NCBI GenBank assembly: GCA_002500565.1
Contig: DLRV01000011.1
Location: 42,019-106,018, forward strand
DNA: 64,000 nt
Direction of reading: 5' to 3'
Source of the DNA: Holosporaceae bacterium UBA7879
GTDB taxonomy: Bacteria; Pseudomonadota; Alphaproteobacteria; UBA7879
Shown: one piece after another, positions 22,947 to 49,481 of the stretch
How the letters are laid out: the number at the start of each line of letters is the position of its first letter
How positions within the stretch are numbered: position 1 is the first letter of the stretch
Position numbers and translations under genes: made by a program
Notes under the pieces: generated by a model
Told to the model about the DNA's origin: nothing
Databases searched by the model: none
The model's input: only the letters and a program-made list of their open reading frames with translations

Positions 22947-24141
22947 TTCTATTTATTGTTTGTTCTGAGTCCGTAACTGCTGATTTCTCCAGTGGTCCAT
23001 ATCCCACCGCTGCGCGTTTTTCATTGGTTGTGAGAAAGTCAGCTTTTTGGAGTCGTTCCCAAATGGATTCACGTCTAAACGTTAGCGCTGAAATTTTTTC
23101 GGCATCAAAGCTAAACCCTTCCGCATTCATCCCTGCCCAGGTTGAAAACTCGGCCATGATGCGTTGCAGTAAAGGAATGATCGTGTCTTCCCATAAGTGG
23201 AAGCGGGCTTCCTTATAATTGGCAAAAGTGGCATCGCCTGGCACGCCCACCAGCATGGGTGGCACGCCAAACGTTTGTGCCACTTCCCGTGCAGCCATTT
23301 GTTTACCGGTCAGAAAATCCATATCACGTGGGCTCATCCCCATTTCACGCCAATCCAAATCCCCTTCCAACACCATCATTTTGCCAGCTTGGCCTGTGCC
23401 ACCATACGCATCGTTCAGCTCTTGCCGTAACTGTTCGCGTTGTTCTTCGGTCAGGGGCAAGCTATGTTCAGCTTGTTTCATCACCAAAGCCCCAGTTGGC
23501 CGTCCGCCGTTATTCAACAGCGAGATATTGTGTTGGCCCATGGCATTGGCTTGATCAATGGCCAATGCCGCAGCTTGAAGTGGGCTCAGCCCATACCAAT
23601 CGTTGTGGGGGTGAAAAAACTTAATGTGCAGAATGTTCGAAGCGCCTGTCTCGGCATTCACAGGAATAATTCTTTTCCGTCCTTCCACTTCATACTGGAA
23701 CGCTTTCGGAATGCCATGGGGCCCGGGCACCACCGCAACCCGATCTGGACGCAAGGGATATAACTCCATTCGCCCTGTATCTGGGCAGGTATAGCGCTCT
23801 ATGTATGTATTCCCTGATAGCAGCAAATAGCTGGTCACTGTTTCTATAAAACTTGACCACGATTGGCTTGGATTGGGCTTGCTCAAAACTTTTTGCCAGT
23901 GCTTCTGTAATTTTGGACACCAGTTATTTGGTATCTGCCACACCACACTGGCAAGGTTATGGGCAATCACATTAATCGCGCGGTAGACAATGCTATTTTT
24001 GCCATAGCCCTCTTGGCATAAGTTCCAATAACTTTGCGACAGGTCACGGCTTGCCATACCGCTACGCACCGACAAAATAGCCGGCCTTGAGTTTGCACGC
24101 GTTTTTGTGCGTTTTGATTTATTCTGAAACCATTGAAACAT
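22918..24141 (-). CDS. phage portal protein, HK97/GTA family
   Basis: 407 aa; portal-family conserved stretches (YWNLCQEGYGKN, LLLSGNTYIERY, VLEGDLDWREMGMSPRDMDFL, FHLWEDTIIPL) as in HK97-type and RcGTA g3 portals. Confidence 0.75.
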   Translation of the reverse strand: MFQWFQNKSKRTKTRANSRPAILSVRSGMASRDLSQSYWNLCQEGYGKNSIVYRAINVIAHNLASVVWQIPNNWCPKLQKHWQKVLSKPNPSQSWSSFIETVTSYLLLSGNTYIERYTCPDTGRMELYPLRPDRVAVVPGPHGIPKAFQYEVEGRKRIIPVNAETGASNILHIKFFHPHNDWYGLSPLQAAALAIDQANAMGQHNISLLNNGGRPTGALVMKQAEHSLPLTEEQREQLRQELNDAYGGTGQAGKMMVLEGDLDWREMGMSPRDMDFLTGKQMAAREVAQTFGVPPMLVGVPGDATFANYKEARFHLWEDTIIPLLQRIMAEFSTWAGMNAEGFSFDAEKISALTFRRESIWERLQKADFLTTNEKRAAVGYGPLEKSAVTDSEQTINRNGEDTNATH

Positions 24142-25112: not shown

Positions 25113-28100
25113 TTATAATGCTGGTGTTTCATCATCAGAACCTAATAATGGTCTAGCATTCGGAAGTGAGGCAGGTCTGTCATCCGGATTGACATGTTTT
25201 GCACGTGGCACAGCTGACAAATCGACAGAAGGCTCTTTCTCAAACATTTTCACCAGTCCATGGCCTTGCTTAAGTTCATTGTCAACAAATCTTTGGAAAT
25301 TCTCTAATGCAGATTTTCTTGTTTTAGATGATCTTGGAGCGTCATCTTTAGATAGCACAGAAAGATTTACATAACCACTTCCTAGATCCAGACCTTCTGG
25401 CACTTGCCCATTATCTTTCAGTTCTATAAACCAATTATTAACTTGATTAATAAATTTATATTTTTTACCCGTATACTGTTGATGTATCGCATTAAGATCA
25501 ACACCTTTTACAGGTTTTACAGGCGGCAATGCATCACGCAGTCCACCAGCTGAGCGGCGGGCTGGGCTCATGACACGGTCACCAGCCGCTGCTGCTGCCG
25601 CAGCACCTTCTGCACCCTCTTCGCCATCATTAACACCAGCACGGAACTGAGCCAATTCAGTTGCAAATTCCTTAGCAGCAGCTTGATGCTTAGATGCCGC
25701 AGCGATTAGGCCTCTCATTAAATCAGCTAGTACGCCTACATCTTCAACACGGTCAACTTTGGCGTCTTTAATAGCTGTACCATACTGGCTTTCAGTAAAA
25801 ACTTTCACTGCAGCCCGCACAGCTGCTAGCATCGCTTCTTGGCCTTCTTCCGCTGCTACTTTTGCCGCCTCTGCCGTTGCAGCACGCTCTTCAGCCTGTT
25901 GCGCCGCTTGTATCTGCTGGCGCAAGTCTGCCGCTTGAGCTTCTTGAGCTTCTTGTGCCGCTCTTTGGGCTTCCTCAAGTTCTGCTACCTTATCTGCTTC
26001 TACTTCCGCTCTAGCTGCCGCAACCTCTGCCGCTTTAGCTTCTTGTGCATCAAGGGCATGTTGATGTAGTCGTTGTAATTCATTTTCAAGCTCAGCAGTT
26101 CGTTGCGTCAATTCAGCTCTCGCCGCTTCTGCTGCAGCGCGGGCTTCATTAGCTTGTTGTGCTGCTTCATTTGCTGCTTCTAGTTCATGTTGTAATCTTG
26201 CCAATTCTTGAGCTTGAGCTTGAGCCGCAGCATCTTGAGCACCTTGGTTAGCTGCAGCCGCTGCTGCTTGCTGTGCTTCCAAAGCTTCAAATCTGCGTTG
26301 AAGTTCATCTCTAGCTGCTTCTGCATCATGTGCACGACGGGTTGCATCTGCTAAGTTCTGCTCAGCCTCTGCTTTGGCTGCAGCTTCTTGTGCTTGGGCC
26401 TCCGCTGCTCTTTGAGCTTGTTCTGCCTGATCTGCTAGACGACCTTGCAATTCATTTCTCGCCGCTTCTGCTGCAGCGCGGGCTTCACGAGCCTGACGCG
26501 CTTCTTCAGTTGCTGCGTCTAGTTCACGTTGTAACCGTGCCAATTCAGCTGCTTGAGCTTGAGCCGCAGCATCTTGAGCACCTTGGTTAGCTGCAGCCGC
26601 TGCTGCTTGCGCATCCCGAAGTTGTTGTAACTCACCAGCAATTCTTTGCCGTTCAGCCTCTGCATCATCTGCTCGACGGGTTGCAGCTTCTAATTCTTGC
26701 TGATGCGCTGCTAAGTTCTGCTCAGCTTCTGCTTTGGCTTCAGTTGCTGCTGCAACATGCGCCTGAGCTGCTTCTTCAGCTTGTCTTACGGCTGCTGCTT
26801 GGGCCTCCGCTGCTCTTTGAGCTTGTTCTGCCTGATCTGCTAGACGACCTTGCAATTCAGCTCTCGCCGCTTCTGCTGCAGCGCGGGCTTCACGAGCCTG
26901 ACGCGCTTCTTCAGTTGCTGCGTCTAGTTGCTGACGTAACTGTACCAAAGCTTCTTGTTGAGCTTGAGCCGCAGCATCTTGAGCACCTTGGTTAGCTGCA
27001 GCCGCTACTGCTTGTTGCGCATCCCGAAGTTGTTGTAACTCACCAGCAATTCTTTGCTGTTCAGCCGCTGCCGCTTGTGCACGATGGTTAGCTTGATCTG
27101 CAGCATCACCTAACTGCTGCAAACGGTTTTGAACTGCTGCATCAACATCTGCTGGCAACGCAGCATTATCTGCAAGTCCAAGAACTCTTCTTGCAAGAGC
27201 TTGACTTGCTGCTCTGGCGGCATCACGTTCTCTTTCTGCAGCTTCCAACTCTTGCTGACGCGCTGCTACTTCTGCTCGCGCTTGGACCAAATTATCTTCT
27301 GCTTGACGAAGGTCTGCCGCTCTTTGCATTGCCGCTGCTTCATCCGCTGGTGCTTGCTGACCTTGTGGTACTAACGCTGCCAAAATACGACCTTTTTCCT
27401 GCTGTGCAGCATTTAAATCATTTTGCGCTTGCTGTAAGTCCTGCTCAGCTTGACGAAGCGCCTGAGCGCGAGCTACAGCCGCAGGTAAATTTGCAGGTAC
27501 TGTACCATTAACATCTTGCAATTCTTGTAAAAGCTGTCGTCTTCCAGCACGCAAGGCAGCCAATTCTATTTGCTCTTGGTTGTTCAATGGCTGATTAGGG
27601 GCATTTAACTGAGCTTGTGCCGCTGCCGCTGCTGCTACCGCCGCTGCCTCACGCTGCTGTGCCGCTTGCAAATCTAAACGCGCTTGTGCTTCTGCCGCTA
27701 CCGCCGCTGCCGCTGCTGCTGCCGCTTGTTGAGCCGCTTGTGCTTGACGTGCCACATCACCGCGTAGTTGATTTGCTGCCGCAACATGTGCGGCAACTGC
27801 CGGGTCTGGTTGAGCAGGTGGATTACCATTTACTGCTGCTGCTAACTGTTGTAAGCGCGCCCGTTCTGCCGCTTCTGCTTGTTGTGCTTGTTGTGCAGCT
27901 TGCCTTGCCGCTTGTAAATCTACACGCGCTTGTGCTGCTGCCGCAACTGCTGGCACTGGATTAGCAGGCACTTGTTGACCATTTAACACGTCTTCCACCT
28001 CTTGCAGATGAGCTTGTGCCGCTGCCACAGCAGCCTGGTTTCCACCCCCTGCTTGTGCTTGTTGCATTTGCTGAACATAATTAAGAGCATTTCCACTACT

Positions 28101-28316
28101 TAAAAACCGGATAAAATCACCTTTTTGGAGCATTAACCCCATATTGCGAGCAACGACAGGGATATACGCTGGTGGAATTTGTTGCGCAGGTACAACTTTT
28201 GCATTGTGATTACGAATGTAAGCCTCCGCTTGCTCAATTGTTGGCTTACCAGCAGACACTGATACGGCTAAAAAAGCTGTTGTAGCCAATACGCTAAGTT
28301 TAAATTTGTTAAACAT
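25113..28316 (-). CDS. secreted giant coiled-coil repeat protein, Ala/Gln/Glu-rich (eukaryote-like effector candidate)
   Basis: 1067 aa; signal peptide (LSVLATTAFLAVSVSA); ~700 aa of heptad-like A/Q/E/R-rich sequence with three near-identical ~115-130-aa tandem units; unique ~250-aa C-terminal domain. Confidence 0.6.
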   Translation of the reverse strand: MFNKFKLSVLATTAFLAVSVSAGKPTIEQAEAYIRNHNAKVVPAQQIPPAYIPVVARNMGLMLQKGDFIRFLSSGNALNYVQQMQQAQAGGGNQAAVAAAQAHLQEVEDVLNGQQVPANPVPAVAAAAQARVDLQAARQAAQQAQQAEAAERARLQQLAAAVNGNPPAQPDPAVAAHVAAANQLRGDVARQAQAAQQAAAAAAAAVAAEAQARLDLQAAQQREAAAVAAAAAAQAQLNAPNQPLNNQEQIELAALRAGRRQLLQELQDVNGTVPANLPAAVARAQALRQAEQDLQQAQNDLNAAQQEKGRILAALVPQGQQAPADEAAAMQRAADLRQAEDNLVQARAEVAARQQELEAAERERDAARAASQALARRVLGLADNAALPADVDAAVQNRLQQLGDAADQANHRAQAAAAEQQRIAGELQQLRDAQQAVAAAANQGAQDAAAQAQQEALVQLRQQLDAATEEARQAREARAAAEAARAELQGRLADQAEQAQRAAEAQAAAVRQAEEAAQAHVAAATEAKAEAEQNLAAHQQELEAATRRADDAEAERQRIAGELQQLRDAQAAAAAANQGAQDAAAQAQAAELARLQRELDAATEEARQAREARAAAEAARNELQGRLADQAEQAQRAAEAQAQEAAAKAEAEQNLADATRRAHDAEAARDELQRRFEALEAQQAAAAAANQGAQDAAAQAQAQELARLQHELEAANEAAQQANEARAAAEAARAELTQRTAELENELQRLHQHALDAQEAKAAEVAAARAEVEADKVAELEEAQRAAQEAQEAQAADLRQQIQAAQQAEERAATAEAAKVAAEEGQEAMLAAVRAAVKVFTESQYGTAIKDAKVDRVEDVGVLADLMRGLIAAASKHQAAAKEFATELAQFRAGVNDGEEGAEGAAAAAAAGDRVMSPARRSAGGLRDALPPVKPVKGVDLNAIHQQYTGKKYKFINQVNNWFIELKDNGQVPEGLDLGSGYVNLSVLSKDDAPRSSKTRKSALENFQRFVDNELKQGHGLVKMFEKEPSVDLSAVPRAKHVNPDDRPASLPNARPLLGSDDETPAL
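26100..27100. repeat. intragenic tandem DNA repeats (~345-405 bp units, 3 copies)
   Basis: e.g. GCAGCATCTTGAGCACCTTGGTTAGCTGCAGCCGCTGCTGCTTG recurs at ~26221, ~26566, ~26971. Confidence 0.7.
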
Positions 28317-28366: not shown

Positions 28367-29197
28367 TTACAGTTTATAACTTAGAGTCATCATCAAACGT
28401 GTTTGTTTTGGCTTAACTTTAATGATTGTGTCTTCACCACGGTCATCCTCAAAATCGTGCTTCACATTTTGAAAGCGACGGTGGCTGAAATCAATAGATC
28501 CTATCCAATCTTCAGAGAATTGGTGAACAAAACCAAAACCCACATCAACACCGAAAACCTTTTCACGGCGCTTTAGTAACTGGTTATCAAGAGCCCCCGG
28601 CACACCACCCCTTGGATGGTTAGCAATACGGCTGTGGGAACTGAACTGAGCAAAGACCGGCCCTGCGCGCAGGTATGCCGCTGTTGCTGGAGCAAAACGC
28701 CAACCAAACTTTTGAATTAAAGCAACGGCAAAATCTTGACGGTATTTCGTTTGCACATCAGTTGCATTAACCACACCATTAACCACATTTACACGTGAAT
28801 TTTTCTTAGACCATGTCTGTGGCCCGGTCATTTCAGCTTCCAAAGACATAAATGTGTTTGGGAACACGCGCATGTAACCAGCAACAATCCCACCAACAGG
28901 CGTTGTTTTTTCTAACTTACGTGTTGCATCCATGTTCACAACACCATTGTTATCTGTTACTTCTAGGTTTTCCTTACCACTGTCGCGGATCACACCCCCT
29001 GTCAAACCCAAATAAAATCCATCTGTCAGACCTTCGGTTGAGGTGTAAACAGTGTTGCTCTTTTGATCAGCGATATTTTTCATGGCACCGCAATTACATT
29101 GAACAGTTTCTGCTACTGCAAGATTAGCACTTAGCGCTAGAACAGAAGTTAAAATTTTAAATTTGGACATGGATATACTCATATTATTTTGCTGCAA
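28367..29197 (-). CDS. outer-membrane beta-barrel protein (OmpA/OmpW-like surface antigen family)
   Basis: 276 aa; signal peptide (probable start MSKFKILTSVLALSANLAVA), alternating hydrophobic beta-strand pattern, C-terminal aromatic-rich strand. Confidence 0.5.
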   Translation of the reverse strand: MQQNNMSISMSKFKILTSVLALSANLAVAETVQCNCGAMKNIADQKSNTVYTSTEGLTDGFYLGLTGGVIRDSGKENLEVTDNNGVVNMDATRKLEKTTPVGGIVAGYMRVFPNTFMSLEAEMTGPQTWSKKNSRVNVVNGVVNATDVQTKYRQDFAVALIQKFGWRFAPATAAYLRAGPVFAQFSSHSRIANHPRGGVPGALDNQLLKRREKVFGVDVGFGFVHQFSEDWIGSIDFSHRRFQNVKHDFEDDRGEDTIIKVKPKQTRLMMTLSYKL

Positions 29198-29327
29198 ATT
29201 ATCAGATATTAATTTTTAGTCAATATTAATTAGGGGAGTGTTTAGACAATATTTGTTTTTTTAAGAACTATTTTTAATGATTCTAATATTGTGGGAAATT
29301 TTTTATTAAGCTTATGGCAATAAAAAA

Positions 29328-31005: not shown

Positions 31006-32208
31006 CTATTGACACTGCACTTTATAATTCTTAGAAGCCACACCTTTAAAATAAAACTCCAAGCCCATCATTGCCACATGGCGGCTTAAGGCTGGGTTTC
31101 CCGAAAAGTGGCTATTGGCGCCGTTCCGGGTTAGCCACTCAGCCAATGTTTTAGCCGTCATATCAATGCGTGTCTGGTTAAGCAAGCCCCGCCCTTTTTC
31201 AGCCTGCCGAAGTTGCCACAAGCTATAGTGCAAAACCACCAATAATTTTTTCATGAATAATTGCTGGTGTTCCCGGCACGTTACACGTCCCTCAAAATAA
31301 ACGTCCAGCATTTTTTGATCTTGCGCGGGACTTAAAGCAAAAAAAACACTTACCGCTGCCAAATCATCAAACGCATCGCCCGTGCTGGAATCTCCCCAAT
31401 CAATCAGTTTTATTCCACGCGCGGTTTGTAAAACATGGCTTTGCTGCAGATCGCCATGAATCATCACCATCGGCTCTGGCTGCAAGTTTTCAACCACCAA
31501 CTTCACCGACCGTCTTAACGCTTTTAAATCAACCACAGTTGACTTGATCTTTTGCAGTTCATCAATCCGACGCACAACCCGATCTTCAATTCGGGTAACA
31601 CGTGGATAAAGGCGCTGATCGGCTGGCACTGCATGTACTTTTTTCAAAAGCTTCGTTAACGATTCTAAATCCTGATCAGATAAAGGAATCGATAATGTCT
31701 CCCCCTCTAACCACGGCCAAATCAAAAACCCAGCCTCGGGATCATCAATTGAAATTTCCGGCCCGAATCCAAGCGCTCCTGCTAAGCTTGCTCGATAGAC
31801 GCCGCGCTTATTGGCATAAGCTGTTCGGCCAAACAGCCGCAACCCCCTTTCTTTTGAGCTGCATTTGATGTGATAAACCTGATCAGGTTTTTGACTTCTC
31901 GGTCGATAGACGCACGCACCAATATCCTTCTTACCAATAGCCTCTCTCAATTTTGAAGATACTTTTTTGGGTAATGTCGGCAATAACCTATTCAATGGCT
32001 GGTCAGCCAACACGCCTGGCGCAACCAACGCCTCAGACTGCATACAAAGCCCAACAAACAGAACCAATATCAGCCGATAGATACCCCCCATCAAAGAAGC
32101 AGCAACCGACCTATTCCAAAGTCCGGGCCACTTCTTCAATTTCAGAGCACTCAATAAAGTCACCTTCGCGCAGATCATTATAGTTTTCAAACGCCATCCC
32201 ACATTCAT
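31006..32208 (-). CDS. phosphotransferase-family protein (APH/choline-kinase-like kinase fold) with N-terminal hydrophobic region
   Basis: 400 aa; Brenner motif MIHGDLQQSHVL and IDWGDS (HGDxxxxN / DWE-like) of APH/ChoK family; N-terminal hydrophobic segments. Confidence 0.55.
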   Translation of the reverse strand: MNVGWRLKTIMICAKVTLLSALKLKKWPGLWNRSVAASLMGGIYRLILVLFVGLCMQSEALVAPGVLADQPLNRLLPTLPKKVSSKLREAIGKKDIGACVYRPRSQKPDQVYHIKCSSKERGLRLFGRTAYANKRGVYRASLAGALGFGPEISIDDPEAGFLIWPWLEGETLSIPLSDQDLESLTKLLKKVHAVPADQRLYPRVTRIEDRVVRRIDELQKIKSTVVDLKALRRSVKLVVENLQPEPMVMIHGDLQQSHVLQTARGIKLIDWGDSSTGDAFDDLAAVSVFFALSPAQDQKMLDVYFEGRVTCREHQQLFMKKLLVVLHYSLWQLRQAEKGRGLLNQTRIDMTAKTLAEWLTRNGANSHFSGNPALSRHVAMMGLEFYFKGVASKNYKVQCQ

Positions 32209-34711: not shown

Positions 34712-36253
34712 TTACGCTTTTGTATCGGCCTCATCCTTTTCAACAGAAGCTTCTGTTGCATCGTCATCAAACCAGTGTGCACGCGCTTGCATAATGATAT
34801 CATTGGCGACATCCAGCGAGATATTATCTTCGCCAAACATTTCCACCAATTCATCACCCGCCAAGTCAGCTAAATCATCCAGTGTGCGACAATTGTTTTC
34901 AGCCAGTACCATAAGCAATTCCGGCGTCAAAGGTTCAAACTCACTAAGGGATTTATCCACGCCCATCTCGGCAACTTTTTTCTTAATTTCTTGATGGCGT
35001 TTTTCAACAGCGGCTTGAGCACGTTTTTGCAGTTCTGTTGCTAAGCCCTCTTCAAATCCTTCTATTTCAAGCATTTCTTCAAGGTCACAGAAGGCAATCG
35101 CATCGAGTGTATCAAACCCTTCAGAAATCAATAAGTGTGCAATCACCTCGTCAATTCCTAATTCGTTAATAAGATCTGTTGAAACTTGCTTAAATTCATC
35201 GTTACGTTTTTGCGTATCATCAGATTCCGACATGACGCTAACTTCAAGCCCCGTCAGCAAGCTTGCCAAGCGAACGTTCTGTCCGCGCCGGCCAATGGCA
35301 ATACTTAAGTTATCGTCCGGCACAACCACTTGAACCCGGCGGGATTCTTCATCATATACCACACGGGAAATGTCAGCCGGCGCCAGTGCACTAATCACAA
35401 AACTGGGGACATCCGCTGTCCATGGCACAATGTCCACACGCTCACCTTGCAGCTCATTCACCACGGCTTGCACACGGCTTCCACGCACACCCACACACGA
35501 TCCCACGGGGTCAATGGTTTGGTCATTGGTCCGTACAGCAATTTTCGCGCGGCTGCCTGGATCCCGCGCAACAGATAAAATTTCGATCACACCTTCATAA
35601 ACCTCAGGCACTTCTTGTGTAAACAATTTGGCCATAAATTGTGGATGTGACCTTGAAAGAAAGATCTGTGGCCCACGCGTATCGCGCACAACCTCCAGAA
35701 TGTAAGCCCGCACGCGGTCACCGGGGCGCAACACCTCACGGGGGATGGCCTCGTCACGGCGCAGCACACATTCGTTCCGGTTCACATCAATAATGTAATT
35801 CCCATATTCAACCCGTTTAACAATTCCGCTGATGATCTCACCAACTTTGTCTTTAAACTCTTCGTACTGACGCTCTTTTTCAGCTTCTTTAACGCGGTAA
35901 TTAACAATTTGCCGCGCTGTTTGCGCTGCCATCCGCCCAAAAGAAACCGGGGGCAAAACATCGGTTAAGTACTGGCCAACCGTTGCCTCGGGCTGTTCTT
36001 CTTTTGCCGCTGCCAAGGAAATTTGTTTGTTTTCATCCTCAACCTCTTCCACCACTTCACGGTAACGTTTGATGGTAATTTCACCGGTTTTGCGATCAAT
36101 GGTCACACGAATATCATGGTCCATACCGTACTTGTTCAAAGCAATTTTCTGAATTGCTTCTTCCATTGCTTGAATGACTGTTTCGCGGTCAATCAACTTC
36201 TCGCGGGCAACAACATCAGCAACTTGTAAAATTTCGTTATGGACAGTAACCAT
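34712..36253 (-). CDS. nusA: transcription termination/antitermination factor NusA
   Basis: 513 aa; S1 and KH domains (GRRGQNVRLASLLTG), C-terminal acidic repeats; classic nusA-infB arrangement. Confidence 0.9.
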   Translation of the reverse strand: MVTVHNEILQVADVVAREKLIDRETVIQAMEEAIQKIALNKYGMDHDIRVTIDRKTGEITIKRYREVVEEVEDENKQISLAAAKEEQPEATVGQYLTDVLPPVSFGRMAAQTARQIVNYRVKEAEKERQYEEFKDKVGEIISGIVKRVEYGNYIIDVNRNECVLRRDEAIPREVLRPGDRVRAYILEVVRDTRGPQIFLSRSHPQFMAKLFTQEVPEVYEGVIEILSVARDPGSRAKIAVRTNDQTIDPVGSCVGVRGSRVQAVVNELQGERVDIVPWTADVPSFVISALAPADISRVVYDEESRRVQVVVPDDNLSIAIGRRGQNVRLASLLTGLEVSVMSESDDTQKRNDEFKQVSTDLINELGIDEVIAHLLISEGFDTLDAIAFCDLEEMLEIEGFEEGLATELQKRAQAAVEKRHQEIKKKVAEMGVDKSLSEFEPLTPELLMVLAENNCRTLDDLADLAGDELVEMFGEDNISLDVANDIIMQARAHWFDDDATEASVEKDEADTKA

Positions 36254-36451
36254 TTCTATTTCCTCTTAAGTTTAATTTTAATGCCATACGCCACATACAC
36301 AAAAGGGGGATCTAAAATCCCCCACTTCAATGAAGTAGCAACAATTTCAACCGTAGTATATCCAGCCCCTCTCAGATTTCAAGAAGAAAAACCACGCTTT
36401 TCAAACATCGACAAATAAAGCTTTTTTCAGAGAGAATATTAAGAAAAAAAA

Positions 36452-36466
36452 CCAGCGCAAAGCTGG
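36452..36466 (-). terminator. rho-independent terminator candidate
   Basis: CCAGCGCAAAGCTGG hairpin preceded on plus strand by A9 (T-run on minus), immediately after the stop of the 36469..37881 gene. Confidence 0.55.
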
Positions 36467-36468
36467 CT

Positions 36469-37809
36469 TTATTCACACCTTCTTTGTAACAAAACCTCCG
36501 AGAGTGTTGAGCCATCTCCAATTTCTGGAAGCTTATCTTCCATCAAAACCCTTAAGAAGTTATCATCACCAACTTTTCTAGAAACTGAAGTCCCCACCAT
36601 TAAACTTTCAAAAAACTTGGCAAAATACTCTTCTAAAAAACCTGGCTCACAATAGGATCTGTAGCATCTTGCAAAAAGGAGATGTGGTTCTTCTCCTTTA
36701 TCTTCCATCAGTCGCTCATAATTTCTTCTTAACAACCCTTGCATATTTTCCCTTGTCCACAATGAGACCTTTTTTGCCATAAACGCTCCATAGCGTTCAT
36801 TGGGCGCAAATATTTCTCCAACTACCTCAGCACACTTTTCAACAAAATCAGCCAAAGAACCTTCTTTTTGTTGCTCACTCGCCTCTCGTAAATCCTGAAC
36901 ACTAACTTGAACAGAATAATTTGGTGCGGTCATATTTTTTTCAAAATCTTCCGATGATAAAAGAACACCCTTATCATTTCGTGGATTACAAACTTCACCC
37001 AGATAGTGAATTTGACCTCCATTTTTAAGCCTAACCGTTACTTGCTCTACGATTACTCCTCTATTACGCTGCAAAAACTCTTTATAAGGCTCATAATCCT
37101 CGACTGAAAATCTCAAAGGACTTAAACATAAATAAGCAATATTCATAAAAGCTCCTGGCGCAGCGATACTTCCAACAATATCCCTAAATTTTTCTATTGT
37201 CTCCTCAGGCATAAAATGTAAAAGGTTACGTACCACAATAAGGTCAAATTCAGCACCCTCTTTTGCCAATTTTTTTAGAACTTTAAGAAAATCTCCCTTA
37301 ACAAATCGCGTTTTCCCAAGCTTTAAAGATTTTAGATTTTTATTGTAATAGTCGATAGCTTCTTGTAAAGCAGGCCGGCTTAAATCATTAAGCACAACCT
37401 CTTCTGCACCAGCCAATAAAAATAAAAAAGAATGAACTCCAAAAGCACCGCCCAATTCTAAAACTTTTGCACCTTCGGCTTTTTCCAGCATTGCATGCAA
37501 AGTTTGAAAGGTATAGTTAAAATGCACGCCGTAAGTAACCTCACCGTCTTGAGCAACATTTTGCGCACGTTTTTTTTTCATAATCTCCAAAATATCACGA
37601 GCTGCTGGCTTTCTGTCTTCTGTGAAAAATTTTTCAACAAGCATATCTTCCGTAAAACCAGCAGACACTAAACTTTCAATACTGGATGAAAGAGTGGGCG
37701 CGGGCACTGCTGCTCCACCTGCACAACCATCGGGTTCTTCTCCCCCCAGGACAGCAAAAACATTAGAAGTCATTAAAGTAATTAAAAGTAAGTATAGGCA
37801 AGGTTTCAT
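36469..37809 (-). CDS. secreted class I SAM-dependent methyltransferase (effector candidate)
   Basis: ORF 36469..37881; probable start MKPCLYLLLITLMTSNVFAV (signal peptide); motif I VLELGGAFGVHSFLFLLAGAEEVVLNDLS and downstream Rossmann motifs. Confidence 0.55.
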   Translation of the reverse strand: MKPCLYLLLITLMTSNVFAVLGGEEPDGCAGGAAVPAPTLSSSIESLVSAGFTEDMLVEKFFTEDRKPAARDILEIMKKKRAQNVAQDGEVTYGVHFNYTFQTLHAMLEKAEGAKVLELGGAFGVHSFLFLLAGAEEVVLNDLSRPALQEAIDYYNKNLKSLKLGKTRFVKGDFLKVLKKLAKEGAEFDLIVVRNLLHFMPEETIEKFRDIVGSIAAPGAFMNIAYLCLSPLRFSVEDYEPYKEFLQRNRGVIVEQVTVRLKNGGQIHYLGEVCNPRNDKGVLLSSEDFEKNMTAPNYSVQVSVQDLREASEQQKEGSLADFVEKCAEVVGEIFAPNERYGAFMAKKVSLWTRENMQGLLRRNYERLMEDKGEEPHLLFARCYRSYCEPGFLEEYFAKFFESLMVGTSVSRKVGDDNFLRVLMEDKLPEIGDGSTLSEVLLQRRCE

Positions 37810-38213
37810 TTTTATTAACTTTTTTATTTTTATATTCAGATAAAAAGTGCAAGTCAAATAAAAAAGCTTTGTCCAAAACACTCAGAACAATAAAACTTCA
37901 AAATAATATTATGTAACAAAATATAAAGCAAACAAAGCATCCACACGGGGAAATCGAGCTAATACACACAATTTAAATCCAAATCACCTAATATGTGACA
38001 AGCCTAATCAGCTTTAATTCAAATTTTTGTGTACCTATAAAGCAACTCTATATTTCTAACCCTCATGACAACAACCCGGTAAAAATACGGGTATGGATCC
38101 CGACAAAATAGCACCCCCTGAACAACTTACAAAAAACGCCTCACACATAAAAAAACTCCCTTCAAACAAATTGTTGAAGGGAGCAAGTGTTTTAAAAAGT
38201 TAATCAATAGCTT

Positions 38214-39698
38214 TTATTGATTTGTTGCAGCTTTTTCCTCAAAAGCTTTATAGAGGCTATGATAAAGGCTTTCTCGACCATTATCTCTACCATGCTTATG
38301 AAGTTCTTTTATCCATCTAGCGTCCTTATTTTCTTCCTGCATAATCAAATCACAAATGCTATTAACAGCGTAGTTGAAATCATCTGTGTGAGGAATTCTC
38401 AAAGACTCTGAATCAGTATCAATGCCAATCTTTTCAGAAGCAAGTTTTAAAACAGCGCTCAACCGAGGTCTCAGAGCTATAGTTATGATTTTCACCTCAC
38501 CTGGCTGTGTTGTCAAAACTCTACCTTCTCCCTCTTGTTGATCCAAACCAACAGCTGCGCTTGCTGCTGCAGCATGCGCCGACTGAAGCTCTCTGCTCTG
38601 AGCAGACCCTCTAGTGAGCCGCTCTAGATGGGCCAAACGAGCTTCTCTTTCTGACAGATGTCCACCACCTAATCGCTGCGACCCTACTTTTGGAGCTGGA
38701 ATAAACCATTTTATTGTTTTATCAGGTTGACGAGGCTCCGCCATTCTTTCCAAAAGAGCACTACCAGCTGCCTGAGCTGCAACCGTAGCCGCTGCTGCAG
38801 CAGGTTGAGCAGCTTGGTCAGCCTCCATTTGTCGCTCAACTTCTGCACGCATTGCTTTAATGTCTTTTAAAGTTTTTGCAAATTGTTCTTGTCTTTCCGG
38901 GGTGATAGCAGAATCATTCTCTCCCGCCGCTGCCAGCACGACACCTTCTCTCGGTGGAAAGGATCTTCTGCGTGAATCCATTGGAGGCGTTCCGGGTAAA
39001 TCATATCCCTCAGCTGCCGAAGCACCAGCCGCCGGAGCAGCCGCACTATCCTGGCCCACAAAAGATTCTTCTATAATGTCTCTAACCCAATCAACACAAG
39101 CTGCTTGATCTGTTTCAAAAGACTTTTTTAAAATTTTATAAGTATCATCAGAACCTGGATATTTATCTATGGAAACTCTCTGAAACTCATTTGCCAAAAA
39201 ATAGTTAGCTAGGAGCTCAATGGAAGATTCATATTTTTCATGACCTGAATTTTGAAGACTCTTTCTACTTATAGCGCCCTCTTCTATCATGCAATTAATG
39301 AATGCTACACCTGCATCTTCCTGTGTCATTATGGGCTTAACAGTACGGCTATTAATTGCATACAGGTCACCTTCTGTCAATGCAGCAGGTGTAGCCGCAG
39401 CTGCAGCTGTCCCTACAACTTCTGCAAGTGATACCTTTAGAGCTTCTTCCAGGCCTTCATCTCCTGCAGCAGCACCATAACTAGATGCAGCTGGTGTAGC
39501 CGCAGCTGCAGCCGGAGCCGCAGCCCCCACAGCACCTGAACGTGATAAATTCACAGTTTCTTCAATTTGTAGGCGTAATGCCAAATCCCAGTCACCTTCT
39601 TCACCAGCTTTATTTCCTACAGGATCTATATCAGCTGAAAATAAATTAAATGCCGTAACGCTCATAAGCATGGCTGTGATTGAGGTTAATTTTCTCAT
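38214..39698 (-). CDS. secreted Ala-rich hypothetical protein (effector candidate)
   Basis: 494 aa; signal peptide (ITAMLMSVTAFNLFSA); several poly-Ala/AAAAT segments; no catalytic motif recognised. Confidence 0.4.
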   Translation of the reverse strand: MRKLTSITAMLMSVTAFNLFSADIDPVGNKAGEEGDWDLALRLQIEETVNLSRSGAVGAAAPAAAAATPAASSYGAAAGDEGLEEALKVSLAEVVGTAAAAATPAALTEGDLYAINSRTVKPIMTQEDAGVAFINCMIEEGAISRKSLQNSGHEKYESSIELLANYFLANEFQRVSIDKYPGSDDTYKILKKSFETDQAACVDWVRDIIEESFVGQDSAAAPAAGASAAEGYDLPGTPPMDSRRRSFPPREGVVLAAAGENDSAITPERQEQFAKTLKDIKAMRAEVERQMEADQAAQPAAAAATVAAQAAGSALLERMAEPRQPDKTIKWFIPAPKVGSQRLGGGHLSEREARLAHLERLTRGSAQSRELQSAHAAAASAAVGLDQQEGEGRVLTTQPGEVKIITIALRPRLSAVLKLASEKIGIDTDSESLRIPHTDDFNYAVNSICDLIMQEENKDARWIKELHKHGRDNGRESLYHSLYKAFEEKAATNQ

Positions 39699-39960: not shown

Positions 39961-42138
39961 TTATTTCAAATGCGGCCATTCCCTTTTACTTTTAGTGCTT
40001 TTATCGCGGCCATATCCTCGATCCATTTGTATGGCATGCTTCAACCTTCCTTCTGACATAAGAAAAGGGCTGTTTTTAATCATTTCTTGATACTCGGTAC
40101 TCTTTTCAACACGCGCTTTTAATGCGTCTAGGGTTATATTTTTGCCTTTTTCCGTTTTGTATTCGTCACACAATTTTTTTAACAAGGCCCACATTTTATT
40201 TAATTTATTCTGACGGTCTGTTCGTCCGGCTTGATATTTTTCACTGGATAGAAAAAATCCATTGTGAACTCTCAATTTATATTTTGCGCCCTTGTTTTTA
40301 TTAATGATTTTAACAGCTTCTATATTTGTTATATACTCACCCGTTTCTTTATAAACTTGATCAATTGTTGAAAAAATTTCAGCAATAACCTGTTGTTTTT
40401 TATGGTCACGATCATCTTGCGTTTCAATAAATTTTCTTAATTGACCTTGGTCTAATTTGTCTACTATCCATTTAATACGTTTAAACAGAGATTCATTTGT
40501 TAGAGAGGAGACGTCAACCTTACAAAAAAACAAAGATTTATTCTCACGCAGATATACGGATAGCCTATTTACAAGCTTATGAAGTGACATTTTCTTTTTC
40601 TTATTGTCTTTCCATATCTGTTCCATCGCTATCCATAGCTGCTTGATGTTTTCACCCTCATGCGCATCATCAAACAAACCAGGCTGGCGTTTAGTCTTTT
40701 TGGCTTCTAGGCTTTCTTTATCTGGATCTCCTTCATCAAGAGCTGATCCAGCAGAACGCCTTTTTGCTGTTTCTTTTTTACGCATGTCAGAGTTCATAGC
40801 AGCAGCCCCAGAAGCTGTCGCGCCTGCAGCAGCTGCCGCCGCACCATCTCCGTCACCGCTAAGATTAGCTTGCCCAAAAGCAGGCGGCACATCGCCATCA
40901 CTGCTATCCCCCTCATCTGATTCGTCTGACTCACTAGAGGACTGATCCTCATCCGTTTCCATACCACCACCGGGGCTCATGGCAGGGCTTGCCTGCCCAC
41001 TGTCCCCGTCAGCGTCACTATCACCACTCTCATCTGCATCAGAATCCGCTGCTTCAACTCCGCCTGCTTGGCCATCTTCTGGCATACCGCTAACAGCTGC
41101 TTGAACTTGTTGTGCCAAATCTCCATATCCGCGCTCACGCGCTTCTTTAGATCTGGCTTTTGTTACATCTCTCACGCCTACAGGGCTTAGGCTATCTTGG
41201 TCTTCTTGTTCCTCGTGTTCTTCTTGGTCATCTTCCCCATCATCTGCAGCGCCCTGCACCATTGCTTCAGCAAAATCTCCTTGCCCTGCGTGTTGTTGCA
41301 AAAAATTAACCAGTTGAGGTGGCGCATGCTCAACGTGCTCCACCTCCTTATACTGTTCAAAAAGAACCTTCTTTTGCTCTGCTGCTACTTCATCAGAAAT
41401 ACCATCTGGCCGATGCCCCCAATGCAATAAAACCGCTTTGATCAAGGGAATTATCTTAGACCGCGAGTACTTCTCTTGAAGAACAGTTACCAACTTCCAT
41501 GCATTTTGTTTTTCAAAACCAGTTGGCTCCAAACCATAGGCATTCATCTCAGCCACGTTATAAACATAGCTTTTAAGTAAATTGGGAAAGAGCCGTTTAT
41601 CTGCATTATTCAACACCTGCAAACCATTCATTTCTTCTATTTGCTCCCAAATTAAAGCACGAATATTGCGTGCGAAGATAATAAAAGATTGGCCCAAGAT
41701 AATATCCTCACCAGCGGGATAAAATCGCATCATCGACAACATGTTGGACACACTCACTAAAGCTGAGTTTATTTTATGTCTGCGCACATCTTCTGAATCA
41801 TGGTTACCCAAACCAATATAATATTCATCCGTCAAGCGACGCTTTAGTAAATTAAACACGGCTTGCATCGCTGCTATATTATGATCATTTACATCACCTA
41901 ATCCAGGCACACGATCAGCGGCTCTAAGGGAACACATTGCAATAAATCTTTTGAACGCCTTTGCAGCCTCTGAACGATCTACGGGGTTTTCTGGATGAAA
42001 TTTATTTTCATACGCTTGCACCAGCCCTGGACCATGTTCTTTATCCAGTAAATCCTGGCCTCTAATAACAGGTAAAACAGCCTTTATAGATGGCGTTAAT
42101 TGAAAAGCAACCAGCAAACAAGCAATAATTTTTTTCAT
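39961..42138 (-). CDS. secreted protein with central poly-acidic (D/E/S) region (effector candidate)
   Basis: 725 aa; signal peptide (IIACLLVAFQLTPSIKA); N-terminal ~300-aa domain with GLGDVNDHN...GLGNHD reminiscent of metallophosphoesterase motifs II/III; ~150-aa D/E/S/G-rich acidic tract; Lys-rich C-terminal domain. Confidence 0.4.
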   Translation of the reverse strand: MKKIIACLLVAFQLTPSIKAVLPVIRGQDLLDKEHGPGLVQAYENKFHPENPVDRSEAAKAFKRFIAMCSLRAADRVPGLGDVNDHNIAAMQAVFNLLKRRLTDEYYIGLGNHDSEDVRRHKINSALVSVSNMLSMMRFYPAGEDIILGQSFIIFARNIRALIWEQIEEMNGLQVLNNADKRLFPNLLKSYVYNVAEMNAYGLEPTGFEKQNAWKLVTVLQEKYSRSKIIPLIKAVLLHWGHRPDGISDEVAAEQKKVLFEQYKEVEHVEHAPPQLVNFLQQHAGQGDFAEAMVQGAADDGEDDQEEHEEQEDQDSLSPVGVRDVTKARSKEARERGYGDLAQQVQAAVSGMPEDGQAGGVEAADSDADESGDSDADGDSGQASPAMSPGGGMETDEDQSSSESDESDEGDSSDGDVPPAFGQANLSGDGDGAAAAAAGATASGAAAMNSDMRKKETAKRRSAGSALDEGDPDKESLEAKKTKRQPGLFDDAHEGENIKQLWIAMEQIWKDNKKKKMSLHKLVNRLSVYLRENKSLFFCKVDVSSLTNESLFKRIKWIVDKLDQGQLRKFIETQDDRDHKKQQVIAEIFSTIDQVYKETGEYITNIEAVKIINKNKGAKYKLRVHNGFFLSSEKYQAGRTDRQNKLNKMWALLKKLCDEYKTEKGKNITLDALKARVEKSTEYQEMIKNSPFLMSEGRLKHAIQMDRGYGRDKSTKSKREWPHLK

Positions 42139-44958: not shown

Positions 44959-46377
44959 CTAAATAGCAGCTGGTCTTAGCAGCCCCCTGTAACATTCTCC
45001 AAAAAGCTCCATCAAGCTTTCCAACTGATCAGCTGGTACATAAACCCTTTGCAAATTTGTAAAAAAATATTGTGGAAACATTATAAATCTTTCTGATACT
45101 GACAAACTTAAGTATAGAATTTGTAGGAATTTAGTCTCATCCAATAAACGAACCCCAACATGCGTCAATGCTGGCGCATATAGGTGCAGGACTTGTAGGG
45201 AGTAATTCATACTCAAAAATGCATTCCCAACACTCGTCAATGCTGGTACATAGAGATGCATAGTTTGTAGATCGCGGGGGCCACTCAGGACATTATGCCC
45301 ACAACGCGTTAATGCTGGCATATATAGATGCAAAGTTTGCAGATTGAGGTTGCTAGAAAAGAAATAATCCCCAATTGTTTGCACGCTCTCATCAGCATTG
45401 GTTAGTACCAAGTTACGCAGACGATTGGGGAGATCTGCTCTGCCCCGCATGGTAAACACTGGGCCCGCAGCATCAATATCTATAACAACTGTTGGTTGTG
45501 GACCCTCAGCATTTTCTGGCAATAAGCGATTGATATCATCTTTTAATCCAGCCAGCTGGCTGTGTTGAACAACCCAGTAAGAGTCTGTATCAATCGCTTC
45601 CGTTTCAGCGGTGATTTCTTGGTAGTTTGTATCAAGAAACGTCTGCAATCCATTGTGCCCACGTGGGTTCCAAACCCGATCACGGAAAGCTTGCATCCAC
45701 TCTTTTTTCTTGTCTTCAGTGGTATAGTAAACTTCATAGCCAAAAAACTGATGCTGCAATGCGGCTTTTTGCACAAACGTTAAATCTTGTGCATCCTCAC
45801 CCAACGCCTGCAGAATAAGCCTGTACATGTTCTCATGCTGCATGCTCTCACTTTTACTTGCAATGCTCATCGCCATCTCACTGTTGTTTTTTATGGCAAG
45901 AAGCTCATAGCTTCCCAGAGCAGCCTTTAAAATACCTTTTCTCTCTTCTGGTAGATAGCGACGAGATAAAACTTGTTTTAAATCGACTGAAATTCTCTCC
46001 AAGTGAAAAACAGGCAATCCCATATCAGGCAATGCCTTACCCGTTGGATCTTTAGGCCCACCACTCTCTTGATACAGAGCTTTCTTCAGGTGATGAATAC
46101 GTGCATCACCAACCATTCTTGTCATTTGTCTTGAAGCTTCAGCCAACCGCACTGCCGACGTAGGATCCAGAAAGGGCACGATACGATCAATAACCTCTTG
46201 TGGCAGATTCGCTAACGTTGGAGGAGAATCTGATGCTTGCGGCGATGCCGCTGCCGCAGCGGCAGGCTCAGTCTCTTCAGCTTCATCGTTTGGGCCTACG
46301 GCCTGCACCGAGGTGCTCATCATGCCAAGAACCAATGCTATGCCAAGCCATAGCTGTAAAATCTTTTTCATAATCAC
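44959..46377 (-). CDS. secreted leucine-rich-repeat protein (BspA/LRR_5-like; effector candidate)
   Basis: 472 aa; signal peptide (LQLWLGIALVLGMMSTSVQA); C-terminal ~22-aa repeats LQTLHLYMPALTRCGHNVLSGP / LQTMHLYVPALTSVGNAFLSMN / LQVLHLYAPALTHVGVRLLDET. Confidence 0.55.
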   Translation of the reverse strand: MIMKKILQLWLGIALVLGMMSTSVQAVGPNDEAEETEPAAAAAASPQASDSPPTLANLPQEVIDRIVPFLDPTSAVRLAEASRQMTRMVGDARIHHLKKALYQESGGPKDPTGKALPDMGLPVFHLERISVDLKQVLSRRYLPEERKGILKAALGSYELLAIKNNSEMAMSIASKSESMQHENMYRLILQALGEDAQDLTFVQKAALQHQFFGYEVYYTTEDKKKEWMQAFRDRVWNPRGHNGLQTFLDTNYQEITAETEAIDTDSYWVVQHSQLAGLKDDINRLLPENAEGPQPTVVIDIDAAGPVFTMRGRADLPNRLRNLVLTNADESVQTIGDYFFSSNLNLQTLHLYMPALTRCGHNVLSGPRDLQTMHLYVPALTSVGNAFLSMNYSLQVLHLYAPALTHVGVRLLDETKFLQILYLSLSVSERFIMFPQYFFTNLQRVYVPADQLESLMELFGECYRGLLRPAAI

Positions 46378-47855: not shown

Positions 47856-49481
47856 TTAAGCTTGGAAATTCAACAGTTTCAAAGCATCCGGATTAACAAC
47901 CGCTCCTCCTGTTCGTTTTGTGATATAAAACTCAACGTGGGGTTTAGAACTGTATGGATCGCGTAAAATATGCATTCCACTGCGGTCAACAATTTGGTAG
48001 GCCTCCTTAAAGTTTCCAAAGGCAATCGCAACTCCGGCTTGTCCACCTTGTAAGGCTGGCATTTCATCACACACCTCAACCGGATACCCAAGCAAGGTTG
48101 AAACCGCTCCACCCAGTCCTGGCTGCCAGAGGTAATGCCCAGTTGCAGGGTCCTTCAACTTGCGCACCGCGGCTACAGCGGAACGTGACATCAACCAGCA
48201 TGCACCTTGTAAATATTTGGTTTGTAAGCTTTGCATCACATCAATCAGCAAATCAGCTGGTTTCTGCTCTGGAAAAGCTCCATCCACACCCGAATTCAAT
48301 GTGCCAATTTCTTGGCCGTTGTTCGCATTTAGCTCACCACGTGCATGGGTTAAAAACCCTGAAGGTTTATTATTCCCATCTCCATTCACAAACGCCGCTG
48401 TTTCCATCCGCGCCATCCGATCAGCCACACACTGAACCAACCAGTTTTCAACATCAACCTTGGCATCATCCAGCAACTTCTGGGTTGCCCGTGGTTTGGC
48501 ATAAACTTCGTGCACTGCAATGCGCAGCTTTTTAATCTCGCCGGCATCTGTTTCCGCCCGATCGTTTTCTTCAGCTGTCCAGCCTGCATCCGCCAACGAA
48601 CCTGTCAGCAACACATCCACAGCACTGGTGGAAATTTGCATTGTCCGTGCCAGTTTTCTTAAGGGCGACAACGCTTCAATATTCCCCAGCAGGCGGTCAT
48701 GCAAAATTTCAGGAATCAGGTGCCCGCCGTGCTCCTCATCCGTTGTTGTGAGGCCCTTCTGTCGCCACCCCTGCCCCGAGCGCATGAAATTGGCAAAACC
48801 ATGCGCTTTTTCTTCCATGTTTGTTAACGCTGTCGCTGGTTTTTCGTTTGTTTGATTTGTGATCATCTTTTTCTCCTTTTGTTGATCAGTTAATTGATTG
48901 GTTGTTTCAAGCACTTGGTGTTTAACCGTTTGAATTTGCGCTTGTTGATGAGCCGGGAACGTAACCAGAGAAATCTCTAAAAGATTGACCCTTTCAATGG
49001 TAAATCCGCCGGCTTCATTGGGTTGATGCTTCTCGCTGATAAAACCAATAGACAGGCCATCAATTTCACCTTCTTTGAGCAAGGCATAAACTTCACGGGC
49101 CTTGGCCACTTGTAAAAGCAACTTCCCTGTCACCTTCAGCCCATGACTATCCTCTTCAATGCTCAGCCATTGCCCGATAGGGGTTTCTTTATCATGTTGC
49201 CACAATAATTTGGGCCGCTTTTGCTTATGGACATATGCTTGTAAAGACTGGCTAAAAGCCCCCGGCAAGATCACGTCTTGATCCTGATCTGGCTCATTGA
49301 AAACACTGGCATAGCCAGTAAAAATCCCCTCTTCTGAAACTGATTTCAAAGTCAGGGGTTGCACAGCATGGCTGCGCTTGAAGTGCGACATATGTCTCTC
49401 CTTGGTTGTTAAATTGAATTTTGATTGGGTGAAAAAATACTTAAGTAAATTAGCTATCAATAAGCTTGTAGACAGGCACAA
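47856..49481 (-). CDS. HK97-family prohead protease fused to HK97-family major capsid protein
   Basis: 541-aa single ORF; N-terminal ~170 aa has prohead-protease (S78) features (VFNEPDQDQDVILPGAF, HGLKVTGKL, ISLVTFPAHQQAQI); remaining ~370 aa is HK97-fold major capsid (FANFMRSGQ, LIPEILHDRLL, GEIKKLRIAVHEVYAKPRATQKLLDDAKVDVENWL); possible internal start MITNQTNEK. Confidence 0.7.
   Translation of the reverse strand: MCLSTSLLIANLLKYFFTQSKFNLTTKERHMSHFKRSHAVQPLTLKSVSEEGIFTGYASVFNEPDQDQDVILPGAFSQSLQAYVHKQKRPKLLWQHDKETPIGQWLSIEEDSHGLKVTGKLLLQVAKAREVYALLKEGEIDGLSIGFISEKHQPNEAGGFTIERVNLLEISLVTFPAHQQAQIQTVKHQVLETTNQLTDQQKEKKMITNQTNEKPATALTNMEEKAHGFANFMRSGQGWRQKGLTTTDEEHGGHLIPEILHDRLLGNIEALSPLRKLARTMQISTSAVDVLLTGSLADAGWTAEENDRAETDAGEIKKLRIAVHEVYAKPRATQKLLDDAKVDVENWLVQCVADRMARMETAAFVNGDGNNKPSGFLTHARGELNANNGQEIGTLNSGVDGAFPEQKPADLLIDVMQSLQTKYLQGACWLMSRSAVAAVRKLKDPATGHYLWQPGLGGAVSTLLGYPVEVCDEMPALQGGQAGVAIAFGNFKEAYQIVDRSGMHILRDPYSSKPHVEFYITKRTGGAVVNPDALKLLNFQA

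Follow-up and report, generated by a model that had tools for sequence, protein, structure and literature searches.

The gene considered here lies on the minus strand of a 64,000-nucleotide (nt) stretch of contig DLRV01000011.1 (positions 42,019 to 106,018; assembly GCA_002500565.1, Holosporaceae bacterium UBA7879), the whole of which is referred to below as the window. An earlier note on this DNA, made from the letters alone, had taken the gene to code for an S-adenosylmethionine (SAM)-dependent methyltransferase preceded by a signal peptide of the general secretory (Sec) pathway. The open reading frame (ORF) was confirmed at 36469..37881, where the ORF list gives a frame of 470 amino acids (aa) opened by GTG, and the peptides quoted in the earlier note are present in its translation. 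One of the peptides, MKPCLYLLLITLMTSNVFAV, begins at codon 25 of the 470-aa frame and so places an in-frame ATG at 37809, from which a product of 446 aa is obtained. We consider this ATG (Met1) to be the likely start of the gene, because the closest relatives bear signal peptides of their own at the equivalent position. The coding sequence would accordingly occupy 36469..37809 (446 aa plus the stop codon, from the ORF list, Pfam and the family hidden Markov model (HMM) described below), and the 446-aa numbering is used throughout; the parts of the gene named below are all on the minus strand. The GTG at 37879..37881, which opens the mechanically derived 470-aa frame and would prepend MFWTKLFYLTCTFYLNIKIKKLIK, is unlikely to be the true start, since the added 72 nt (37881 to 37809) are very A+T-rich and leader-like and the extension is absent from the homologues. 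Another alternative, Met13 at 37771..37773, is the start chosen in an NCBI record and would delete the signal peptide. A Shine–Dalgarno match was found at neither ATG, and many other genes of the window are also without one.

Read from Met1, the protein opens with a predicted signal peptide of 19 residues, MKPCLYLLLITLMTSNVFA (37753..37809), recognised from the sequence itself, from a simple heuristic and from the relatives. It consists of an n-region MK, an h-region PCLYLLLITLM and a c-region TSNVFA, with a predicted signal peptidase I cut between VFA and V, directly before Val20. The heuristic is positive from Met1 (hydrophobicity of the 8-residue core 2.69, charge +1, V at −3, A at −1, site after aa 19) and negative from Met13. 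A lipobox is missing from this signal, and the lipoprotein reading was rejected. Past the cleavage site there follows an acidic low-complexity linker rich in Gly, Ala, Pro and Ser, VLGGEEPDGCAGGAAVPAPTLSSS (aa 20–43, 37681..37752); in the AlphaFold2 model the predicted local distance difference test score (pLDDT) is below 50 at aa 21–32 and 44–49.

Signal peptides of the same n-h-c build, unrelated to one another in sequence, precede the conserved domain in the closest homologues, for instance P0002 (MKFNSWVIFLSLIFSINLFS), P0004 (MKYLFIVLSFFAFSLSA), P0008 (MRLLSILPFLFSFSVLA), P0009 (MKNFFLLSLCALTFSYA) and P0012 (MKFKAFLILLLLSLSGSYSFA); the relatives that bear signal peptides of their own are P0002, P0004, P0005, P0007–P0009 and P0012. 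Across the family 54 of the 122 members are positive by the same crude heuristic, with the positives enriched among those nearest to the window protein. Judged from these sequences, the signal peptide appears to be a conserved feature of the closest relatives, and Sec export with cleavage after Ala19 is predicted. The earlier claim of a Sec signal ahead of the methyltransferase domain is thereby borne out, both by the n-h-c anatomy and by the signals of the closest relatives. The same note had allowed that the true start might lie past the hydrophobic segment; in our judgement it probably does not, since the signals of the relatives favour Met1, though NCBI calls Met13.

The methyltransferase and its family

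By profile, motifs and fold the protein belongs to the class I (Rossmann-fold, seven-beta-strand) SAM-dependent methyltransferases, and the corresponding activity is predicted. Two Pfam models match aa 112–209 above their gathering scores, Methyltransf_25 with 30.4 bits (cut-off 27) and Methyltransf_31 with 28.9 bits (cut-off 27), inside a SAM-binding core that extends over aa 84–225 (37135..37560). The class I motifs pointed out in the earlier note are intact, motif I being VLELGGAFG (116–124), with VVLNDLS at 138–144; GDF (172–174) and RNLLHF (194–199) are present as well. The residues expected of a SAM-binding site, E118, G120 and G124, the post-I LND (140–142, with D142) and the GDF with D173, are in place and conserved across the family, and the alternating beta/alpha fold is superposable on solved class I enzymes. 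In the earlier note a fold comparison had been looked to for placing the enzyme; it matched the class I Rossmann core and left the substrate class and the subfamily unplaced.

The core is preceded by a helical region common to the family (aa 44–83, 37561..37680; alignments A1 and A5 and the AlphaFold2 model), with the consensus A..IL...YE...R.I....YG..FP, model helices at 40–49, 54–61 and 67–79, and pLDDT above 90 at aa 51–80. In the model, strand 5 is separated from the closing strands of the fold by a family-specific beta/alpha insertion (aa 226–339, 36793..37134), drawn with moderate confidence as strands 252–260 and 266–273 and helices 304–333, which is presumed to form a substrate-binding lid. 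The remainder (36472..36792) comprises the C-terminal strands of the fold (aa 340 to about 400) and a lineage-specific tail (aa about 400 to 446), delimited from alignment A5, in which His385 also aligns with the nearly invariant GH motif of the family. When aa 226–446 were searched alone, sequence relatives were not detected; the insertion aligns to no PDB structure, and in all some 175–200 residues of the protein align. The mature protein would be acidic and of about 48 kDa. The high-confidence model of P0032, a central member of the family (pLDDT 89.5), has a disordered N-terminus, the helical region, the Rossmann core and a three-stranded beta insertion with helices, the insertion sheet lying at 274–319, ahead of the last strands.

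The family came to light when 1.84 billion representatives were scanned exhaustively with HMMER, and it comprises about 120 clusters at 50% identity. The scan yielded 120 relatives with E < 1e-3 and 12 with E < 1e-10 (phmmer E down to 2.5e-19), nearly all of 350–450 aa, and a family HMM made from 97 relatives aligns aa 56–362 of the window protein with E = 2e-46. The window protein is the most divergent member, with 19–28% identity to the others in the alignment. It retains the family positions E118, G124, N141, D142, G172, N195, H198 and H385 (67-sequence alignment), including the nearly invariant N195 and H198 of the RN..HF motif. No Pfam or NCBIfam model dedicated to the family was found, its members matching generic methyltransferase models only, and sequence and profile searches of the PDB gave no solved member, the best profile hit being a generic archaeal enzyme (E = 4e-10). 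Our literature search likewise found no description of the family, and the word "methyltransferase" occurs nowhere in the main text of the Legionella effector-domain atlas. A word-indexed protein search returned only the protein itself with the single sequence and two proteins with a 41-sequence profile. The scan of genome contigs with the window protein gave no match, nor did tblastn against plasmids with this protein and with P0032; a sequence-pattern search derived from alignment A4 gave five chlamydial loci, all by one pattern.

The members that could be traced come from Chlamydiota metagenome-assembled genomes (MAGs) and Rickettsiales-like genomes. The central subgroup, which lacks signal peptides, sits in MAGs of Chlamydiota and Parachlamydiaceae, and the signal-bearing members occur in the window organism, in its close relative L012, in a flagellated bacterium of 30% GC (L002), in a contig rich in ankyrin genes and transposases (L014) and in several non-diagnostic contexts. 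In some genomes at least two family copies are present on one contig or in one MAG, and a conserved neighbour was seen in none of the 11 genomic contexts of family members. A MYND zinc finger, which is a cysteine-rich protein-interaction module of eukaryotic type, is present in six members; three of them are signal-positive by the heuristic, and up to five are signal-peptide-like by eye. Taken together, the sequences portray what appears to be an uncharacterised, accessory and fast-changing family of intracellular bacteria.

One of the contexts may be described separately. In L014 (10001–12450) P0043, which has a signal peptide and a C-terminal MYND finger, adjoins an ankyrin-repeat protein with MYND and RING-type fingers, and the island of ankyrin genes and transposases in which they lie has the appearance of an endosymbiont's effector island.

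Membership in described enzyme groups was examined as well. The NCBIfam equivalog models, RlmI among them, give the window protein 15–27 bits against cut-offs of 162–712 and cover the Rossmann core alone. RlmI/YccW matches dominate the single-sequence searches; the reading as a housekeeping ribosomal RNA (rRNA) methylase was rejected because these matches stop at the SAM core and are far below the cut-off (for the RlmI/RlmK-type 5-methylcytosine (m5C) rRNA methyltransferases 26.9 bits against 712, over aa 111–193 only, with PUA not seen in Pfam). Similarly rejected were membership in the PmtA phospholipid N-methyltransferases (20 bits against a cut-off of 250), in Rickettsia PKMT1/PKMT2 (no single-sequence match, and a family-profile match over 90–125 core residues at E ~2e-5), in the SET-domain effectors (no Pfam SET match, and the fold is Rossmann) and in the CheR protein-glutamate methyltransferases, the CheR match being weak and present in 26 of 41 family members. 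The homologues are therefore not the conserved rRNA or transfer RNA (tRNA) methyltransferases that the earlier note had named as a possible undoing of its reading: the equivalog scores are low, and the relatives are accessory and vary between near-identical genomes.

Surroundings of the gene and turnover between genomes

Consensus scanning and fold energies place an intrinsic terminator at each end of the gene. The one at its 3' end (36448..36470, minus strand) overlaps the stop codon and consists of a 9-bp stem followed by a T run; its energy is −13 kcal/mol (z = −3.5), equalled by none of 200 shuffles. The other (38155..38184, minus strand), a hairpin with a T run belonging to the upstream gene, has −16.7 kcal/mol (z = −4.8); it sets the 5' limit of the unit and is followed by a 340-nt intergenic region. 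Because terminators flank both ends, the methyltransferase gene would form a separate, monocistronic transcription unit. Rfam and tRNA scans of the intergenic regions around the gene gave no match, and no second copy of the family was found in the 64-kb window.

Directly downstream lies nusA (34712..36253, minus strand), then infB, a phosphotransferase-family (Pfam APH) gene and a TLC ATP/ADP translocase gene; the two genes upstream (38214..39698 and 39961..42138) code for orphan proteins whose N-termini resemble signal peptides. What the earlier note had said of the surroundings, namely a place between nusA and a run of secreted-protein genes and a terminator of its own, agrees with these findings (hairpin and T run at 36470..36448, z = −3.5). 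The infB ORF (from a GTG at 34672 to its end at 32111) and the APH ORF (31006–32208) overlap by about 100 nt (32111–32208); the call for the orthologous APH gene of L012 is shorter by 39 codons, and the APH start in the window is therefore probably further downstream.

The comparison with L012 shows how changeable this region is. The two genomes are close, with 97% amino acid identity in NusA, 94.5% in IF2 and 99% in TLC, and a 7-kb stretch 87.5% identical at the nucleotide level. Ahead of nusA the slot is nevertheless occupied in L012 by another gene, which codes for a signal-peptide-bearing repeat orphan of 838 aa and not for the methyltransferase. Conversely, L012 has between TLC and the next gene a 1.56-kb insertion (9932–11494) with the signal-peptide-bearing paralogue P0005, 31–35% identical to the window methyltransferase, at a place where the window shows only some 34 bp (29285–29319). 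With P0005, a methyltransferase gene is cleanly present in the one genome and absent at this place from the other. Upstream of the window gene a conserved intergenic block of about 170 bp (37925..38091, minus strand; L012 9–178; blastn and pairwise alignment A6) is 77% identical at the nucleotide level between the window and L012, though the flanking genes differ on both sides: a 494-aa orphan and the methyltransferase in the window, a patatin-domain gene and the 838-aa repeat orphan in L012. The block belongs to no Rfam family and occurs only once in the window; perhaps it serves a replaceable gene slot as a promoter or leader common to both genomes, or else as a recombination site.

The GC content at third codon positions (GC3) of the methyltransferase gene is 0.275, against 0.42–0.47 in nusA, infB, APH and TLC, and it is 0.26–0.34 in most other signal-peptide orphans of the window. 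Since the slot is swapped, paralogues exist, MYND fusions occur, GC3 is low and conserved neighbours are missing, the gene would appear to be accessory and rapidly turning over, of the host-interaction type rather than of core metabolism.

Signal-peptide-like orphans without a Pfam match are unusually dense in the window (11888–14395, 16626–18284, 18508–20610, 25113–28316, 28367–29197, 38214–39698, 39961–42138 and 44959–46377). Several of them are low-complexity or coiled-coil proteins rich in Ala, Gln and Glu, and the gene of the 1067-aa protein at 25113–28316 has a GC content at first codon positions (GC1) of 0.78.

Probable site of action and competing readings

The reading that we favour, as somewhat more likely than not, is that of an exported, host-directed methyltransferase of the effector type. 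The enzyme is probably active beyond the cytoplasm of the bacterium, and the host cell is the likeliest place. According to this reading the 446-aa precursor would cross the inner membrane by Sec, by means of its predicted cleavable 19-residue signal peptide, and give a mature enzyme composed of the flexible linker, the helical region, the Rossmann SAM core and the beta/alpha insertion of the family. Other family members would leave the cell by Sec signals too or, in Chlamydiota, with polar signal-less N-termini, possibly by type III secretion. There the enzyme would draw on the SAM of the host cell and methylate one of the host's molecules, which would be recognised by the N-terminal region together with the insertion and might be a protein, a small molecule or a lipid head group. 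We infer the host cell because it is the sole location that fits at once the Sec signals, the signal-less members of type III style and the combination of Sec with MYND; the members that have both a MYND finger and a Sec signal point to the host because a cysteine-rich finger could only work in a reducing eukaryotic compartment. The TLC ATP/ADP translocase three genes away identifies the organism as an energy parasite in obligate association with a host.

Several observations weigh against this reading. A Sec signal alone delivers a protein to the periplasm, and the window yielded no route by which it might cross the outer membrane; type VI secretion does not normally carry Sec substrates. The NCBI record P0001 (434 aa, 100% identical, 97% query coverage) begins at Met13, inside the hydrophobic segment. 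It was called at 94–1398 of contig NZTA01000041.1 (L001), which belongs to a Tara Oceans MAG labelled "Rickettsiales bacterium" and opens just 93 nt upstream of this start. The signal heuristic is crude, flags membrane proteins such as an ABC permease and does not separate a cleaved signal from a signal-anchor; the case for export therefore stands on anatomy and conservation and not on a calibrated predictor. In the fold searches generic class I enzymes all scored much alike, matched over the Rossmann core alone and giving no indication of substrate, and pLDDT in the model falls below 50 at aa 374–432 and 436–446, so that the C-terminal 70 residues are unreliable. The window protein itself has no MYND finger, and its single KKKR (aa 78–81) is too weak for a nuclear-localisation signal. 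Among the signal-bearing contexts L011, L013 and L017–L019 show no hallmark of an intracellular lifestyle, and the taxonomic range of these members is only partly resolved.

Autotransporter and type I secretion were considered as routes of export and rejected, as both a C-terminal domain of barrel size and RTX repeats are missing from the protein.

The main alternative is a periplasmic or surface enzyme, which would methylate the outer-membrane proteins or lipids of the bacterium itself with host-derived SAM and might, for example, mask lysines from ubiquitylation. The Sec signal taken by itself predicts a periplasmic location, and Rickettsia is known to methylate lysines of OmpB and of other outer-membrane proteins for its protection (PMC8232902). 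The family profile, moreover, gives weak matches to the responsible enzymes PKMT1/PKMT2 (E ~2e-5; Foldseek rank 32), NCBIfam a weak match to PmtA (20 bits), and a host-dependent organism could conceivably be bathed in host SAM. The rickettsial PKMTs are, however, reported to be cytoplasmic and are not described as exported, and we know of no established periplasmic SAM-dependent methyltransferase. An envelope enzyme would also leave unexplained the many signal-less members in Chlamydiota and the MYND fingers of signal-bearing members, which need a reducing compartment. Envelope maintenance should besides be conserved in near-identical genomes, whereas this gene is swapped out, and we regard the periplasmic enzyme as unlikely. 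Retention of the signal as an uncleaved signal-anchor, with the catalytic domain on the periplasmic face of the inner membrane, seems improbable to us. The uncharged stretch of 21 residues has the length needed to span a membrane, and anchors and cleaved signals look alike to the heuristic, but the hydrophobic core is of about 9–11 residues (LYLLLITLM) and is followed by polar TSN, a canonical V-x-A site and the flexible acidic linker, and the relatives likewise have short h-regions and A/S-x-A sites.

The loss of export altogether would make the protein an ordinary cytoplasmic methyltransferase, started at Met13 and acting on a bacterial small molecule, RNA or protein. The NCBI call and the missing Shine–Dalgarno sequence at either start speak for it, as do the nearest folds, which are those of cytoplasmic small-molecule methyltransferases, and the circumstance that about half of the family is without a signal peptide. 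Starting at Met13, on the other hand, would leave half of a hydrophobic segment, MTSNVFAV, at the N-terminus, while the closest relatives independently bear full signal peptides; gene turnover between near-identical genomes, paralogues, fusions to MYND and a GC3 as low as that of other secreted orphans are not what one would expect of a housekeeping gene, and the equivalog cut-offs are not approached. We consider such an enzyme quite improbable. There is finally very little likelihood that the gene is a catalytically dead or decaying accessory gene, coding for a binding protein or turning into a pseudogene. Its position as the most divergent member of the family (19–28% identity), the poorly aligning, low-confidence C-terminus and the low GC3 would be expected from decay; the frame is nevertheless intact over 446 codons with a terminator of its own, and the SAM motifs and near-invariant residues, N195, H198 and H385 included, are all kept.

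If the host-directed reading is correct, its meaning extends past the window. Few bacterial methyltransferases are known to act on the host, and most of these either have a SET domain or are single cases from mycobacteria and mycoplasmas. Here one gene opens the way to a family of about 120 clusters, found in intracellular bacteria that live, uncultured, in protists and other hosts; its export signals, its fusions to MYND, its multiple copies within a genome and its cassette-like turnover jointly point to action in the host. It may even be supposed, in a tentative way and with considerable doubt on our part, that this is an undescribed and widespread effector family of obligate intracellular bacteria, both Rickettsiales-like and Chlamydiota, which would have a unique substrate-binding insertion, be delivered by a Sec two-step or type III route, be targeted in some members by MYND to host transcriptional co-regulators, reprogram the host by methylating a host protein or small molecule, and be exchanged as a cassette between near-identical genomes. 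A new enzyme family would then be added to the host-manipulating effectors, and the SAM-dependent activity would offer a tractable biochemical handle on unculturable organisms. Since the public annotation cuts off the signal peptide, secretome predictions made from the P0001 record would miss the protein.

Related systems and other features of the window

Secreted Rossmann-fold methyltransferases that act on host chromatin are represented by Mycobacterium tuberculosis Rv1988 (histone H3R42) and Rv2966c (host DNA). These are actinobacterial proteins with no specific sequence relation to the window protein past the Rossmann core; they have neither the helical N-terminal region nor the beta insertion of this family, the export signal of Rv1988 is Tat-like, and their activities were measured while that of the window protein is predicted. 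The SET effectors of intracellular bacteria (Chlamydia NUE, Legionella RomA/LegAS4) are similar in concept, being methyltransferases delivered into the host, and differ in fold (SET and not Rossmann) and in delivery, which is of type III or IV instead of by a Sec signal. Eukaryotic SMYD enzymes pair a methyltransferase with a MYND finger, as do the six family members mentioned above.

Rickettsia PKMT1/PKMT2 (PDB 5dnk, 5do0, 5doo) come from the order given in the public label of the MAG, combine a class I core with large extra domains and are among the better PDB profile hits, at the E value and Foldseek rank given above. They differ in their length (~535–555 aa), in their reported action in the bacterial cytoplasm and in matching over ~90–125 residues of the core, the window protein having a Sec signal and another domain layout. 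The methylation of OmpB by these enzymes shields Rickettsia from ubiquitylation (PMC8232902). The small-molecule enzymes of Methyltransf_11/25 type (6mro, toxoflavin N-methyltransferase 5ufm, phosphoethanolamine N-methyltransferases, SgvM) are cytoplasmic and signal-less; they align over ~175–200 residues and have no counterpart of the helical region or of the beta insertion. No single small-molecule subfamily stands out, and therefore a substrate cannot be transferred from them. With the 23S rRNA m5C enzymes of RlmI/YccW type (3c0k, 1wxw) the Rossmann core only is shared, the PUA/EEHEE N-terminal domain having no match in Pfam or NCBIfam.

A precedent for the proposed two-step route is found in Chlamydia CPAF and cHtrA, which (PMC3107777 and PMC6717882) pass with a signal peptide through a periplasmic intermediate to the host cytosol; they are, however, proteases unrelated in sequence, and their second export step is debated.

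The window also contains type VI secretion genes on the minus strand (58720–63649), comprising TssF (61847–63649), TssG (60822–61877) and a VgrG spike with a gp5 C-terminal domain (58720–60825). They are adjoined by a gene for a MORN-repeat protein (57965–58711), in a genome that also has the ATP/ADP translocase. Phage-derived genes were found at 22918–24141 and 47856–49481 (minus strand), one for a portal protein and one for a fused prohead protease and HK97-type major capsid protein, about 24 kb apart; dispersed in this way, they may be remnants of a gene transfer agent or of a degraded prophage.

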